The notes below the pieces were generated by a model that was not told where the DNA came from, did no database searches, and worked only from the letters and a program-made list of their open reading frames with translations. Source: a bacterium (GTDB lineage Bacteria; Lindowbacteria; 2-12-FULL-62-27). From it: a DNA stretch of 64,000 bases. Shown piece after piece: positions 3,675-37,087 of this stretch. The stretch is taken from assembly GCA_016202645.1 (NCBI GenBank), contig JACQOF010000140.1, forward strand, positions 25 through 64,024. Direction: 5' to 3'. The translations under genes were made by a program, and so were the position numbers. The stretch's first letter is position 1; each line of letters begins with the position of its first letter.

Positions 3675-3748
3675 CGTCATTCCCGCGAAAGCGGGAATCC
3701 AGAATGGGTTGCGACAGTGACTGGATCCCCGCGTTCGCGGGGATGACG
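3675..3748. repeat. family A inverted pair
   Basis: Forward unit 3675..3702 and reverse unit 3721..3748, between convergent genes. Confidence 0.9.
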
Positions 3749-3763
3749 AATGTAAAGCATGCA

Positions 3764-10047: not shown

Positions 10048-10090
10048 GCGTTTCCTCCCAGTGTACTGCGTTAGAAATCCCTTTAGATTT

Positions 10091-10147
10091 GTCATCCCCG
10101 CGAAAGCGGGGATCCAGATTCTGGATTCCCGCTTTCGCGGGAATGAC
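10091..10147. repeat. family A inverted pair (3-nt spacer)
   Basis: Units 10091..10117 and 10121..10147, in the intercistronic gap of the CDP-sugar operon. Confidence 0.9.
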
Positions 10148-10161
10148 GGCAATTCCAAATG

Positions 10162-13942: not shown

Positions 13943-13957
13943 GGTATCAGTCCTCTC

Positions 13958-14029
13958 CGTCATTCCCGCGAAAGCGGGAATCCAGTCCGCCTGGCGATAA
14001 TCTGGATTCCCGCTTTCGCGGGAATGACG
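13958..14029. repeat. family A inverted pair
   Basis: Units 13958..13985 and 14002..14029, between the convergent GT2 gene and rfbF. Confidence 0.9.
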
Positions 14030-14051
14030 ACCTGAACAGTTACCCTGTTTT

Positions 14052-17033: not shown

Positions 17034-17138
17034 CCACGAACGGACACGAACGGACACGAACGGGCACGAATTAAATCCGGCATCCACAAAATTTGCTTTT
17101 GTTCGTGGTCGTTCGTAGTCGTTCGTGTCCGTTCGTGG
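17034..17138. repeat. long imperfect palindrome with 10-nt-periodic arms
   Basis: Arms 17034..17070 (CGGACACGAA x3) and 17102..17138, complementary at about 32 of 37 positions, with a 31-nt loop. Confidence 0.85.
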
Positions 17139-17148
17139 ACAAATGTTT

Positions 17149-18393
17149 TCATGGACTTTTTGCCGGCAATAATTTTTCGCACTCGGCGATGACCGCCGAC
17201 GGCGATGAGGGTTTCAGGAGCGTCCGGTGTTTCTCCGGGTCGTGCAGGGGGCGGTTCATTTCGAGTTCTCTGGCCTCGGCGAAGTACAGCGTTACGGTCG
17301 GAGTCCCGAGCGCGAAGGCAACGTGCGCAAGGCCGGTGTCGGGAGAGACGAACACTTTCATTTTTCCGACCAGCGCGGCGGCGACATCGATGGGAGTGCG
17401 CCCGGCCAAATTCAATGCCGGCACGCCCCCAACGCGCAATGGAGAAAATTTCCTCCTGGAATTTTCTGAGACTGAAGCATTGGGGGCTGGACATCCCTGT
17501 CCGCCGGCCTCACGAATGATCCGCTCACAAAGGCCCCGCTCACGCGCGCTGCCCGTCAGAATCACCCGCCCACGCCCCGCCATCCACCGGCAAATCTCCG
17601 CGTAGGACGCGACGTCCCACTGCTTGAACTTGAAAAATGATCCGGGATGAAGCCCCAGATAAAACTCCTCCCCGACCCGCCCTCCGGTCGGGGAGGCTGG
17701 GAGGGGGGTCTCCTTAAGAATTTCATCCGCCTGTTTACCCGCCTCCGCTGATAACCGCAGACTCACCCTCTCCGTCGCCGCCCTGACCCCGATCCGCTCC
17801 CCAAGCTCCAGCGCCCCCCGCACCGCATGCGCCGGCGGCAACGCCTCATCCCCCGGGTTCGCGAGGAATTCCCGAAAAATCGTCGTGCGGTTGCGCCGAC
17901 GAAGAAAGGCACGGACGCCGCCCCACAGCAGCAGCGGCACGACATCCGGGTCGTTCATGTTGCAAAGCAGCGCCGTCCGGTAACCGCCCGCCCGGATCCG
18001 CCGGATCGCCTCTCCCATGCGGCGGAACTTGCCGGGGTAATCTATGACCTCCGTCAGACGCCGGGCCGCCCCCTTCGCAGATTGAAGGAAATCCCGTCCT
18101 GGGATTTCCTGAGTCTGGAGCTTCGGGGACTGGACATCCCTGTCCGCCGAAAAAAGCGGCGCGAATTCTTCCCGGACAAAAAGACCGATCCGCGCGCCGG
18201 GCAGCGCCGCCCGCAGAGATTCGATCAGAGGCGTGACGCAGACGGCATCTCCGAGAGCGGTCGTCGCAACAACCAGGATGGATCCGCGGTCCGTTTCGTC
18301 GATTTCGGATACGGCTCGCCGGATTTTCGCCGGCGGGCGAATTCTCATGGACAGACGCGCGCCCGCTGTAAATAATGCATCCAACACGTTCAT
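17149..18393 (-). CDS. family 9 glycosyltransferase (heptosyltransferase-like) with repeat-derived insertions
   Basis: 414 aa. GT9 hallmarks ILVVATTALGDAV and VSPDTGLAHVAFALGTPTVTLY. About 58 codons derive from three repeat elements, and the ORF stays intact. Confidence 0.75.
   Translation of the reverse strand: MNVLDALFTAGARLSMRIRPPAKIRRAVSEIDETDRGSILVVATTALGDAVCVTPLIESLRAALPGARIGLFVREEFAPLFSADRDVQSPKLQTQEIPGRDFLQSAKGAARRLTEVIDYPGKFRRMGEAIRRIRAGGYRTALLCNMNDPDVVPLLLWGGVRAFLRRRNRTTIFREFLANPGDEALPPAHAVRGALELGERIGVRAATERVSLRLSAEAGKQADEILKETPLPASPTGGRVGEEFYLGLHPGSFFKFKQWDVASYAEICRWMAGRGRVILTGSARERGLCERIIREAGGQGCPAPNASVSENSRRKFSPLRVGGVPALNLAGRTPIDVAAALVGKMKVFVSPDTGLAHVAFALGTPTVTLYFAEARELEMNRPLHDPEKHRTLLKPSSPSAVIAECEKLLPAKSP
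17443..17505. repeat. family C double-hairpin element, copy 1 (inside the GT9 CDS)
   Basis: GAAAATTTCCTCCTGGAATTTTC...GGACATCCCTGTCCGCC. It encodes GGQGCPAPNASVSENSRRKFS. Confidence 0.85.
17665..17708. repeat. family B variant inside the GT9 CDS
   Basis: CTCCTCCCCGACCCGCCCTCCGGTCGGGGAGGCTGGGAGGGGGG. It encodes TPLPASPTGGRVGEE in frame. Confidence 0.85.
18086..18148. repeat. family C double-hairpin element, copy 2 (inside the GT9 CDS)
   Basis: GGAAATCCCGTCCTGGGATTTCC...GGACATCCCTGTCCGCC. It encodes SADRDVQSPKLQTQEIPGRDFL, a different reading frame of the same element. Confidence 0.85.
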
Positions 18394-30095: not shown

Positions 30096-30442
30096 CAACC
30101 CTCCGAAGCCCCCAGGAGCCGCAGGCGGCAGCCGCCGCGGGCGGACACGGCGACCCCAAAAAAATGGTCCGCACCTATCTGGCCATCTTCGGAGCGCTGG
30201 CTGTCCTGACGTTTCTCACCGTCTGGGTCAACACCCTGGACGTTTCCCGGCCGGTCGCGATTGCCATTGCGGGGAGCATCGCCATCGTCAAAGTGGCCCT
30301 GATCGCGATGTTTTTCATGCACCTCAAGTCCGAGGGCCGATGGATCTTCGGCGTCGTCGCCCTTTGCCTGATCGCCGTCCTCATCCTGGCCGTCCTGATC
30401 TCACCCGACATCGGAGGCGTCTTCGGCGGATTCAGGCACTAG
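30092..30442 (+). CDS. cytochrome c oxidase subunit IV-like small membrane protein
   Basis: ORF 30008 trimmed to ATG 30092 (ATGA overlap). Three predicted TM helices, and the position matches bacterial subunit IV. Confidence 0.6.
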   Translation: MTTLRSPQEPQAAAAAGGHGDPKKMVRTYLAIFGALAVLTFLTVWVNTLDVSRPVAIAIAGSIAIVKVALIAMFFMHLKSEGRWIFGVVALCLIAVLILAVLISPDIGGVFGGFRH

Positions 30443-30470
30443 TGTAGTGTCTCAGAGGTCTCTTTACATT

Positions 30471-30551
30471 CGTCATTCCCGCGAAAGCGGGAATCCAGTC
30501 CGCAACTGCAGCAGAAATGGCATATGGACCCCCGCTTTCGCGGGGGTGACG
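30471..30551. repeat. family A inverted pair (right unit degenerate)
   Basis: Units 30471..30498 and 30525..30551, downstream of the cox operon. The right unit contains the candidate GTG start at 30546. Confidence 0.85.
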
Positions 30552-30836
30552 GACTCTGCCCGCCGGCTCCAAATCGCAATCTTTGTTTCACTGTTGGCTG
30601 TTGGCTGTTGGCTGTTGGCCGTCCCGGAGGCATCGGCATGCCCAATGTGCTACGGCGACCTCGAACCCGACCAGGCCCGCGGATTTTTCTGGGGCATTGT
30701 CCTTCTGATTCTCCTGCCGCCCGCCCTCATCCTCTACATCGGCGGCCACGTCTATTTCTCAACCCGCCGGCACGACCGTCAACAACTCCTGGTCGACCAC
30801 GCGGAAACCCTCATCGAACGACATCAGCAGCCGTAA
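30546..30836 (+). CDS. small exported CPMC-motif membrane protein (unknown function)
   Basis: ORF 30447 has a repeat-encoded N-terminus. GTG 30546 gives MTDSARRLQIAIFVSLLAVGCWLLAVPEASA|CPMCYG, a plausible signal peptide, followed by one TM helix. The start is uncertain. Confidence 0.4.
   Translation: MTDSARRLQIAIFVSLLAVGCWLLAVPEASACPMCYGDLEPDQARGFFWGIVLLILLPPALILYIGGHVYFSTRRHDRQQLLVDHAETLIERHQQP
30591..30618 (+). repeat. heptanucleotide tandem repeat (CTGTTGG)x4
   Basis: Perfect 4 copies inside the signal-peptide coding region of the CPMC protein. Confidence 0.9.
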
Positions 30837-30889: not shown

Positions 30890-30917
30890 CGTCATTCCCG
30901 CGAAAGCGGGAATCCAG
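30890..30917. repeat. family A solo unit
   Basis: CGTCATTCCCGCGAAAGCGGGAATCCAG. It overlaps the mnmG stop codon and its last ~8 codons. Confidence 0.9.
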
Positions 30918-32790
30918 CCGTGAGATAGATGAGGAGATTCTGAATGTCGGCCGGGGATACTCCGGAGAGCCGCGCGGCCTGGCCCAGCGTGCGCGGGAGG
31001 TGTTTCTTGAGTTTTTCCCGGGCCTCCAGGGTCAGGCTCGGCACGGCGGCGTAATCGAGGGTCTCCGGAATTAGATGCGCTTCCTGCCGGACCGCGCGGT
31101 CAACGGCCTCGCGCTGGCGGCGGATGTATCCTTCGTATTTGACTTCAATCTCCACCTGCGCCATGACGCTCGATGGCAGGCGGGCCAGCGGCGCGTTGAT
31201 TGCCAGAAGATCCTCGTAGCGCACAAATGGCCGCCGCAGAAGTTCCTCGGCGGTCGGCGAACCCGCCGGCGGGGCGGTGTTGCGGAACTCGCAGACGCGT
31301 TTCATCTCTTCCGTTACGGGCAACCGGGTCCGCCGCAGGGAATTTAGAATCTCATCACGCTTTTCCTCCTCTTCCTTAAAGCGGTCCAGGATTTCCGCCG
31401 GCAGAAGACCGTACGTCTCCGCGATTTTCCGGAGCCTGAGATGCGCGTTGTCCTGCCGGAGAAGGAGGCGGTATTCCGCGCGGCTGGTGAACATCCGGTA
31501 CGGCTCGTCGGTGCTCTTGGTCGCCAGATCGTCGATGAGCACGCCGATATAAGCCTGGTCGCGCGATAAAACAAATGGCGGCAGGCCCAGAATTTTTGCT
31601 GCGGCGTTGATTCCGGCCGCAAGGCCGAGCGCTGCGGCTTCCTCGTAGCCGCTCGTGCCGTTGATCTGCCCGGCCACGTAGAGTCCCGGGATTTTCCGGC
31701 ATTCCAGCGTTGACCGGATTTCGTGCGGCGGCACGTAATCATATTCCACCGAATATCCGAACTTGGTGATCTCCGATTTTTCCAGGCCCCGGATCGTTCG
31801 AACAAAGGCTGTCTGGCAATCCGCCGGCAGGGAGGTCGCGATGCCGTTGACGTATAATTCCGCCGTATCCAGACCTTCAGGCTCCAAAAACACATAGTGC
31901 CGGGGATGGTGGGAAAACTTGACTACCTTGTCCTCGATGCTCGGGCAGTACCGCGGCCCGCGGGACTTGATCCGGCCGGTATAGAGCGGCGACCGGTCGA
32001 GACTGGCGCGGATGATCTCGTGTGTTTTTTCGTTGGTATATCCCAGGTGGCACACCGCCCGATTTTTCGGCTCGATCCCGGCCCAGAAACTGAATCGTGG
32101 CGGCGGCTCGTCGCCCTGTTGAACCTCGAACGCTGAAAAGTCGACCGTTCTCCCGTCGAGCCGCGGCGGCGTCCCGGTCTTCAGGCGGCCAAGGTCGACC
32201 CCCAGTTTCCGTAAATTGTCGGAGAGCGGATAGGCCGCGGGCGACCCCATTCTACCGCCGACTTTGGTCTCCAGCCCGAAGTGCATCAGCCCCTGCAGGA
32301 ATGTTCCGGTCGTGAGGATCACCGCGCGTGCGGGCATATCGCCGGCGCGTTTGCAGCGCAGGCCGGTCAGATGGATGCTGGATGTTCGATGCCGGATGCT
32401 CGATGCTGGATGCTCGATCAAAATTTCGACGGCTTCGTCTTCGACAATCTCCAGATTCGGCGTCGATTCCAGAATCCGGCGCGCAACCGCCTTGTAGAGT
32501 TTGCGGTCCGCCTGCGCGCGCGGCGAATGAACGGCCGGGCCTTTCCGTGTATTCAACATGCGAAATTGAATTCCCGCTTCGTCGGTGATGCGGCCCATGA
32601 GTCCCCCGAGCGCGTCGACTTCCCGCGCCAGCTGTCCCTTGGCCAGTCCGCCAATGGCGGGATTGCAGGACATCTGGCCAATTTCCTCTTTTCTCAAGGT
32701 GACGATCTTGGTGGCAAGCCCCATCCGCGCGCACGCCGCGGCGGCTTCCATGCCGGCATGCCCGGCGCCAACAACGATGACGTCGGTCAT
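30892..32790 (-). CDS. mnmG: tRNA uridine 5-carboxymethylaminomethyl modification enzyme MnmG
   Basis: 632 aa. FAD motif VIVVGAGHAGMEAA, with GidA-family body and C-terminal domain. The last codons and the stop lie in a family A repeat unit. Confidence 0.95.
   Translation of the reverse strand: MTDVIVVGAGHAGMEAAAACARMGLATKIVTLRKEEIGQMSCNPAIGGLAKGQLAREVDALGGLMGRITDEAGIQFRMLNTRKGPAVHSPRAQADRKLYKAVARRILESTPNLEIVEDEAVEILIEHPASSIRHRTSSIHLTGLRCKRAGDMPARAVILTTGTFLQGLMHFGLETKVGGRMGSPAAYPLSDNLRKLGVDLGRLKTGTPPRLDGRTVDFSAFEVQQGDEPPPRFSFWAGIEPKNRAVCHLGYTNEKTHEIIRASLDRSPLYTGRIKSRGPRYCPSIEDKVVKFSHHPRHYVFLEPEGLDTAELYVNGIATSLPADCQTAFVRTIRGLEKSEITKFGYSVEYDYVPPHEIRSTLECRKIPGLYVAGQINGTSGYEEAAALGLAAGINAAAKILGLPPFVLSRDQAYIGVLIDDLATKSTDEPYRMFTSRAEYRLLLRQDNAHLRLRKIAETYGLLPAEILDRFKEEEEKRDEILNSLRRTRLPVTEEMKRVCEFRNTAPPAGSPTAEELLRRPFVRYEDLLAINAPLARLPSSVMAQVEIEVKYEGYIRRQREAVDRAVRQEAHLIPETLDYAAVPSLTLEAREKLKKHLPRTLGQAARLSGVSPADIQNLLIYLTAGFPLSRE
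32374..32415 (-). repeat. three tandem 14-nt units (GAGCATCCAGCATC-like) in frame in mnmG
   Basis: The minus strand reads GAGCATCCAGCATC GAGCATCCGGCATC GAACATCCAGCATC, which encodes EHPASSIRHRTSSI. Confidence 0.9.
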
Positions 32791-36995: not shown

Positions 36996-37068
36996 CGTCA
37001 TACCCGCGGAAGCGGGCATCCAGGCCAATCGTAAAGCAGACTGGATTCCCGCTTTCGCGGGAATGACG
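36996..37068. repeat. family A inverted pair (left unit degenerate)
   Basis: Units 36996..37023 and 37041..37068, between divergent pdxJ and tig. Confidence 0.85.
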
Positions 37069-37087
37069 ACATGCAATATCGCAATCC

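Follow-up and report, generated by a model that had tools for sequence, protein, structure and literature searches.

A 78-nt hairpin repeat lying in frame in a GT9 glycosyltransferase gene and other genes of a Lindowbacteria genome

The window analyzed here is a 64,000-nucleotide stretch of a genome from the uncultured groundwater lineage Lindowbacteria (assembly GCA_016202645.1, contig JACQOF010000140.1, positions 25 to 64,024). It belongs to contig C119 of a 2.9-Mb assembly (G000) of 146 contigs that is 82% complete. A gene for a GT9 (heptosyltransferase-family) glycosyltransferase in this window contains three inserts, namely two copies of a 78-nt structured element and one family-B G/C hairpin element. 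GT9 is one of about 40 genes colonized by the 78-nt element. It is very probable that small, non-autonomous DNA repeats invaded GT9 and some 40 genes in frame and form translated loops in their products, GT9 itself having been invaded three times. An original prediction, made from the sequence letters, had proposed that structured elements acting at the nucleic-acid level colonize permissive loops of this gene. That overall reading is supported by the results below, with corrections to its details.

The GT9 gene and its inserts

A repeat search of the window detected a direct repeat of 90 nt within GT9 (17417-17506 versus 18060-18149, 79% identity). The pair had been predicted to agree at about 50 of 62 positions, and 52 of 63 were found identical (17443-17505 versus 18086-18148), including the final 19 nt of both copies as claimed. 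The unit was larger than the ~62 nt proposed, at 78 nt, and it folds into an outer stem, a central hairpin and a 3' hairpin rather than two hairpins. Over this full unit (17425-17502 versus 18068-18145) copies 1 and 2 are identical at 61 of 78 positions. Between the copies, the arms of the hairpin show compensatory changes, as had been noted: GAAAATTTCC/GGAATTTTC versus GGAAATCCC/GGGATTTCC. Both copies have the same orientation, antisense to GT9, yet they are read in different frames of the 414-codon open reading frame (ORF), copy 1 as GQGCPAPNASVSENSRRKFSPLRVGG in phase 0 and copy 2 as ADRDVQSPKLQTQEIPGRDFLQSAKGA in phase 2. The ORF is uninterrupted despite the inserts. The features of the gene are as follows.

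17149..18393, minus strand: GT9 (heptosyltransferase-family) glycosyltransferase gene of 414 codons, housing the three inserts (ORF list, Pfam PF01075)
17425..17502, plus strand: copy 1 of the 78-nt element, older 'AACGC' subfamily, antisense to the gene; phase 0, residues 298-323, GQGCPAPNASVSENSRRKFSPLRVGG
17444..17466, no strand assigned: central hairpin of copy 1, with a 9-bp stem, a 5-nt loop and one G-T wobble (DNA fold)
17489..17502, no strand assigned: 3' hairpin of copy 1, GGACA-TCCC-TGTCC; its counterpart in copy 2 is at 18132-18145
17423-17427 (ACGCC) and 17501-17505 (CCGCC), no strand assigned: junction pair of copy 1 (junction homology)
17667..17708, plus strand: family-B G/C-rich hairpin element, rare subtype, with tail GGAGGCTGGGAGGGGGG; read within TPLPASPTGGRVGEE, residues 229-243
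18068..18145, plus strand: copy 2 of the 78-nt element, young 'TTCGC' subfamily, antisense to the gene; phase 2, residues 83/84-109, (A)DRDVQSPKLQTQEIPGRDFLQSAKGA
18087..18109, no strand assigned: central hairpin of copy 2, GGAAATCCC / GGGATTTCC (alignment and DNA fold)
18066..18070 (left) and 18144-18148 (right), no strand assigned: CCGCC junction repeat of copy 2 (junction homology)

The third insert matched family B as predicted, with the exact 17-nt tail after a hairpin. Its size was smaller than the 15 residues proposed, being a net addition of 10 residues relative to the ortholog, and the boundaries of this element within GT9 cannot be fixed at this divergence. The repeat-derived part of the protein was correspondingly corrected. 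Instead of about 58 codons leaving about 356 residues, it comprises 26 + 26 + 10 codons and leaves 352 residues, compared with 337 in the ortholog.

This ortholog, P0002 (337 residues, encoded on a Logan contig), is 64% identical to the GT9 protein in a global alignment, and its gene is followed by the same ALGX/SGNH gene that lies downstream in the window. It was called an ortholog on the basis of this shared neighbor and the identity. It was obtained by a protein homolog search, as a search with the GT9 protein for related loci among the genome contigs returned none. P0002 has none of the three inserts, the alignment showing gaps of 26, 10 and 25 residues. Three family-level homologs from sister genera (L002-L004) also lack the inserts and show a 26-residue gap at copy 2. 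The insertions are thus lineage-specific, as the original prediction expected. An exact 78-nt deletion at copy 1 restores GGC|GTG (Gly-Val), matching the empty site of the ortholog.

The GT9 protein matched Pfam PF01075 with E = 2e-19. An AlphaFold2 model calculated from a 61-sequence alignment had a mean predicted local distance difference test score (pLDDT) of 88.6 and a predicted template modeling score of 0.89. Low confidence was confined to residues 85-110, 231-240 and 300-320, which are the three inserts; pLDDT was 45-54 across the copy 2 segment, 59 at the family-B insert and 54-63 across copy 1. In the predicted model, each of these stretches sits between a helix and the next strand, in agreement with the surface-loop placement that had been proposed. 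The top folds in the PDB found by Foldseek were 3tov, WaaF (1psw) and WaaC (2gt1), with E-values of 1e-17 to 1e-12. The host gene is therefore assigned to GT9 by its PF01075 domain and by a predicted GT-B fold like that of WaaC/WaaF. The three inserts appear to occupy surface loops of this modeled fold, the rest of which looks intact. Invariant columns of the family alignment are kept, including the GD and DTGxxH motifs, and the enzyme probably remains active. In metagenome contigs, both 78-nt insertions in GT9 look fixed across four groundwater runs.

Copies of the element and their reading frames

Further copies in the genome had been anticipated. An iterated nhmmer search found 56 in the assembly, of which 54 are essentially full length, and BLASTN detects them as well. 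Alignment of the copies with their flanks showed that the unit is conserved from GCCCCC through CTGTCC, exactly 78 nt or 26 codons, and has no coding capacity of its own. Two subfamilies were distinguished. The 'TTCGC' type, which includes copy 2 of GT9, is homogeneous, with about 30 copies that are mostly 96-100% identical. The 'AACGC/AATGC' type is more diverged, with about 22 copies including copy 1.

Most copies lie within genes. Forty-three of the 56 (77%) are wholly within called coding sequences, five lie across gene ends and eight are intergenic; one of the gene-edge copies proved intragenic on closer inspection, giving 44. Relative to the host gene, 31 copies are antisense and 12 sense. 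Significant Pfam domains were found in 18 of 19 translated host ORFs. The hosts include RecG, SMC, valyl- and leucyl-tRNA synthetases, PP2C and a radical-SAM protein, in addition to a glutaredoxin-thioredoxin-reductase fusion. The genes for ribosomal protein S1 and for a UvrD/PD-(D/E)XK helicase-nuclease host two copies each. In a 2-oxoacid dehydrogenase E2 acyltransferase the element is inside the catalytic domain, and in one of two histidine kinase hosts it is within HATPase_c.

Outside this genome the element has a narrow distribution. Two sister genera have full-length copies of the older type (three copies and one copy), while a third sister genus has none. The sister-genus copies are also in frame, one example being an insertion that immediately follows the start codon of a membrane protein. 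When 185,579 species genomes and the JGI metagenome contigs were scanned for the exact pattern, only Lindowbacteria relatives matched. The matches elsewhere were Candidatus Lindowbacteria RIFCSPLOWO2_12_FULL_62_27 and one short metagenome contig with the same host gene.

Some copies depart from the standard unit. At C106:121495-121592 and C52:2191-2288 of the assembly, the element is followed by a repeat of its first ~20 nt, or about 1.25 units. The host protein at the C106 locus has a net addition of 28 residues relative to the sister genera, which fits neither 26 residues (1.0 unit) nor 31 (1.25 units). At C99:41446-41495 the 5' ~19 nt are fused to the 3' ~27 nt and the central hairpin is gone; this short derivative looks like an internal deletion. 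Contig depth was also unusual. At 18040-18153 and like loci, the summed depth of young-subfamily contigs in groundwater runs X1-X3 was 100-200 times that of the flanks, while about 31 copies were assembled. The excess, which hints at a true number above 100, reflects either more copies in the incomplete genome or in co-occurring strains, or short repeat contigs that were multiply counted.

The unit is free of stop codons in five of its six frames, and sense phase 0 holds two TGA codons. Frame usage was determined for 42 intragenic copies. Antisense phase 0 is used by 14, antisense phase 2 by 13 and sense phase 2 by 10, while antisense phase 1 (three copies) and sense phase 1 (two copies) are rare. 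These rarest two frames are the ones that encode basic, hydrophobic peptides. The closed frame, sense phase 0, is not used by any copy, whereas about 10.6 copies (~25%) were expected from the codon phases of genic CCGCC sites. Among the 13 non-intragenic copies, none splits a gene in the closed frame. No insertion shifts the frame of its host, and the net insert is a whole number of codons wherever it is measurable against homologs. As the closed frame is unused, the stops inside the element appear to matter; the element is therefore probably read by the ribosome and not spliced out or bypassed. These counts suggest that it is translated within its host genes.

Hairpins, junctions and mobility

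Covariation across the copies, which the original prediction called for, was found. Across 41 distinct copies, 99.2% of the cells of the central 9-bp hairpin (alignment columns 24-32/38-46) are paired. Changes on both sides are seen at three of its pairs, as G-C/A-U, A-U/U-A and C-G/U-A/G-C, and only one G-U occurs among 369 cells. The covariation score of the whole three-stem structure was reached by none of 500 shuffles, and all slid controls scored lower. Full pairing of the outer stem is restricted to the older subfamily, where a C-G pair is exchanged for U-A in five copies. The 3' hairpin hardly varies and so carries no covariation information. Hairpin loops are conserved, and copies from the sister genera add further stem variants such as GAAAATCCC/GGGATTTTC. 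Single-strand folds gave z-scores of -3.0 to -5.3 relative to dinucleotide shuffles and were strong on both strands.

The near-absence of wobble pairs and the occurrence of both orientations relative to transcription suggest that the structure matters at the DNA level or on both strands, with mobilization as its most likely role. The hairpins would then serve the mobilizing machinery as DNA structure. The proposal that the structure is under selection is consistent with the covariation, but it is the weakest step, as hairpin-templated repair could mimic selection.

Junctions were scored for each copy as the sum of the left-flank continuation of the unit's 3' end and the right-flank repeat of its 5' end. 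For 24 of 54 copies the sum equals 5 nt, compared with 14.4 copies predicted for independent sides (P = 0.0004), and only 1% of random genomic positions have a sum of at least 5. Long left extensions pair with short right ones (Fisher P = 0.02). The commonest junction, CC|unit|GCC, is a duplicated CCGCC, which is also the sequence of the unit's joined ends. In six copies the junction is shifted by 1-3 nt, to GTCC|unit|G or TGTCC|unit.

An empty site was found in recG. In groundwater run X1, a contig of 781 nt passes from the right flank directly into the left one and omits exactly 78 nt, with five letters that fit both sides. The filled form reads GTCC-GGCGG-[73 nt]-GGCGG-CTCG and the empty form has a single GGCGG. 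This site is a natural presence/absence polymorphism, arising from a recent insertion or a precise excision. The 5-nt CCGCC/GGCGG repeat that flanks the copies, present once in the empty recG allele, has the form of a target-site duplication.

In the proposed mechanism, the element would insert at CCGCC-like sites, which have the same sequence as its joined ends (...GTCC|GCC...). Each insertion adds exactly 78 nt and leaves a 5-nt direct repeat. With a length that is a multiple of three and with five open frames, the host ORF would usually stay open, and the element would be transcribed and translated as a 26-residue surface loop rich in Gly, Pro, Ser and Gln. Selection would remove closed-frame insertions and those at intolerant positions.

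Two schemes fit the data, one with fixed ends and duplication of 5 bp at a strict target, the other with a permuted donor that is circular or tandem. A more specific model is that the element moves not as a linear piece of fixed ends but as a 78-nt 'period' from a circular or tandem intermediate, recombining via its joined ends (..TGTCC|GCCCC..) at CCGCC-like sites. This model is speculative and is considered unlikely to be correct. A donor of this kind would explain the constant addition of 78 nt, the 5-nt repeat and the six junctions shifted by 1-3 nt, and perhaps also the copies of about 1.25 units. If the model is true, it would represent a previously undescribed route by which a tiny structured DNA writes loops of 26 residues into proteins, with an enzyme that is encoded elsewhere in the genome and recognizes the Watson-Crick-conserved hairpins. 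The movement of elements of the Rickettsia palindromic element type, a long-open question, would then become testable in a still-active system.

Several points weigh against invasion of genes by a mobile, translated repeat. The intragenic counts depend on a crude home-built codon-usage caller (2,238 genes, 87.5% coding). Five open frames were rejected as a sign of design, as 27% of random 78-mers of the genome are open in at least five frames. Both the translation of the element and the activity of GT9 are inferred. The compensatory changes trace to only a few independent events. The empty recG allele is represented by one contig, with a 43-nt left-flank arm, and no empty allele was found at six other copies in four loci (both GT9 copies, two in C13, C146 and SMC), although this is a weak negative as Logan contigs break at the repeat. 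The ends (GCCCCC../..CTGTCC or CCC../..CCCTGT) do not form terminal inverted repeats, as would be usual for a miniature inverted-repeat transposable element (MITE). No mobilizing enzyme could be linked to the element among the Y1, IS110-type and tyrosine-recombinase candidates. None of the 10 Y1 (IS200/RAYT-type) transposase genes lies next to a copy or has the same ends; within 2.5 kb of them no copy or end motif was found, except an unrelated copy 1.8 kb from one. Mobilization by an IS110-type bridge RNA was set aside since the DEDD domain PF01548 was not detected in the 82%-complete assembly. The domain is present in the related genomes G001-G003, including G002, which has no copies of the element. 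Tyrosine recombinases do not discriminate, with about 10 in every family member including the copy-free one.

Other explanations account for the data less well than invasion by small DNA repeats. GT9 might be a decaying pseudogene in which insertions are tolerated and the open frame is coincidental. Three insertions in one 1.2-kb gene are indeed a heavy load, and the gene's score in the codon-usage caller is modest (62). Nevertheless, the 414-codon ORF and the invariant motifs of the family are intact and the fold is confidently modeled outside the inserts. Moreover, the element occurs elsewhere in essential genes (valyl- and leucyl-tRNA synthetases, SMC, S1), never in the stop-containing frame, and the apparent fixation of both GT9 insertions in the four runs also argues for a working gene. 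Decay of GT9 is accordingly considered quite unlikely. Selection for a functional RNA motif, whether protein-binding or regulatory, rather than selfish DNA could likewise produce a central hairpin kept by compensatory changes, conserved loops and folds that are strong on both strands, but the copies occur in both orientations (31 antisense, 12 sense) and in five frames of functionally unrelated genes. The covariation is almost purely Watson-Crick, which fits DNA or both strands, and one site is polymorphic for presence. No Rfam match was obtained; the only hit of the scan was a sub-threshold one to anti-hemB over the family-B hairpin (23 bits against a cut-off of 49.5 bits), taken as chance. 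An RNA-level function therefore seems slightly less credible still.

The inserts might also be removed after transcription or during translation, in the manner of an intron, a bypassed segment or an intein, such that mature GT9 lacks them. An exact length, strong structure and location inside essential genes would suit such a process. Stops would then be harmless, yet the closed frame is used by none of 43 intragenic copies, against an expectation of ~25%. The whole-codon inserts, which never shift the host frame, and the lack of any intron or intein signature in Pfam and Rfam scans point the same way, and removal is judged highly improbable.

Other repeats of the window and comparison with known systems

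Family B is also dispersed through the genome. A motif scan found 90 matches to its 17-nt tail, at least two of them spurious, and the tail is usually preceded by the hairpin CCTCCCCCC-TTGA-GGGGGGAGG. Some 55 matches fall outside the called genes. Of the remainder, many come within about 50 nt of the end of a called gene, and about ten are clearly gene-internal. The GT9 copy represents a rare subtype, also found at three other loci, whose hairpin differs (CCCCGACC...GGTCGGGG). At two loci with this subtype, C74:47476 and C59:4845 of the assembly, the loop CGCCCTCC is reverse-complemented to GGAGGGCG between identical stems, and the hairpin is flipped relative to 17667-17708 of the window.

Two further repeats were observed. 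Between the 3' end of GT9 and the start of the downstream SGNH-like gene, 17034-17138 holds a 42-nt inverted repeat of tandem CGAACGGACA-type 10-mers, with arms at 17034-17075 and 17097-17138 that are 83% complementary. Contig depth there is about six times that of the flanks in three groundwater runs, and on this basis it is regarded as another dispersed repeat family. Family A consists of doublets of the hairpin CGTCATTCCCGCGAAAGCGGGAATCCAG (GAAA loop) that resemble repetitive extragenic palindromic (REP) sequences, often in inverted pairs. They occur throughout the window as listed below, and the genome that carries them also encodes 10 Y1 (RAYT/IS200-type) transposase genes.

1-42, no strand assigned: family A doublet
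3675-3749, no strand assigned: family A doublet
10060-10149, no strand assigned: family A doublet
13943-14044, no strand assigned: family A doublet
30441-30552, no strand assigned: family A doublet
30890-30943, no strand assigned: family A doublet
36996-37069, no strand assigned: family A doublet
57599-57694, no strand assigned: family A doublet

The 78-nt element was compared with known classes of short structured DNA. Integron attC sites have the cores RYYYAAC ... GTTRRRY, with crossover at G|TT. By this consensus, a likeness is seen only in the older subfamily (CCCCAAC...GTTGGGG); the abundant subfamily reads CCCCTTC...CTTCGGGG. The junctions are at GTCC|GCC and not at GTT, and attC was rejected.

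REP/REPIN sequences (RAYT/Y1) and IS200/IS605-derived PATEs resemble the element in being hairpin repeats that are probably recognized as folded DNA. REPs lie outside genes, usually on the flanks of their RAYT gene, and IS200/IS605 elements insert without target duplication. A REP/REPIN-RAYT system was excluded because 77% of the copies are intragenic and none is associated with a Y1 gene.

Bacterial MITEs, including ERIC, BOX, QMITE1 and Anabaena MITEs, are occasionally found in frame (PMC10969869). They are likewise small, non-autonomous, structured and multi-copy; they leave a short direct repeat where they insert and can give rise to translational fusions. The present element differs in lacking terminal inverted repeats, in its strict target core and in that intragenic location is the rule and not the exception. 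No parent insertion sequence was found either: the nhmmer hits contained no longer element with these ends. With ends that are not mutually inverted and no such longer relative, it is not a canonical MITE.

The closest parallel is with the Rickettsia palindromic elements (RPE-1 to RPE-3; Ogata et al. 2000, summarized in PMC10969869 and PMC3767692), which have relatives in Wolbachia. The original prediction drew this parallel; it is apt as an analogy but does not extend to sequence homology. RPEs are also dispersed palindromic repeats that lie in frame in numerous unrelated genes, among them housekeeping genes, with a translated extra peptide that is compatible with the fold and no known transposase. 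As in that class, the present element is a multi-copy hairpin repeat lying in frame in unrelated genes, absent from orthologs and, in the predicted model, at loop positions. Nevertheless, the differences are clear. RPEs measure 100-150 nt compared with 78 nt for the GC-rich element here, which would not be expected to be related to them in sequence, and roughly half or fewer of them are intragenic compared with ~77%. The 5-nt CCGCC junction repeat and the population-level empty allele are reported for RPEs in neither PMC10969869 nor PMC3767692. Moreover, RPEs were described in obligate intracellular bacteria, whereas the present host is an uncultured groundwater lineage. The established families (RPE-1 to RPE-10) are set apart, without alignment to an RPE consensus, by the 78-nt length, the Lindowbacteria-like metagenome-assembled host genome and the exact-pattern scans that matched only Lindowbacteria.

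By these comparisons, the element represents a new family with RPE-like behavior, unusually small and apparently recently active. What is new here is the census, the subfamilies, the frame statistics, the CCGCC junction, the empty allele and the taxonomic restriction. In metagenome-assembled genomes, elements of this kind inflate and distort protein families and cause contigs to break, and they should be recognized during annotation. The junction sequences, the empty sites and the sister genomes with zero to three copies provide handles for an enzyme hunt, and the system allows one to ask how often proteins tolerate or use random 26-residue loop insertions. Until now, in-frame selfish DNA has been known mostly as an oddity of Rickettsia and Wolbachia, and it has often been connected with the relaxed selection of intracellular bacteria. 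The Lindowbacteria element offers a cleaner case, with a short exact unit, a young subfamily, essential-gene hosts, a 5-nt target core and at least one polymorphic site.

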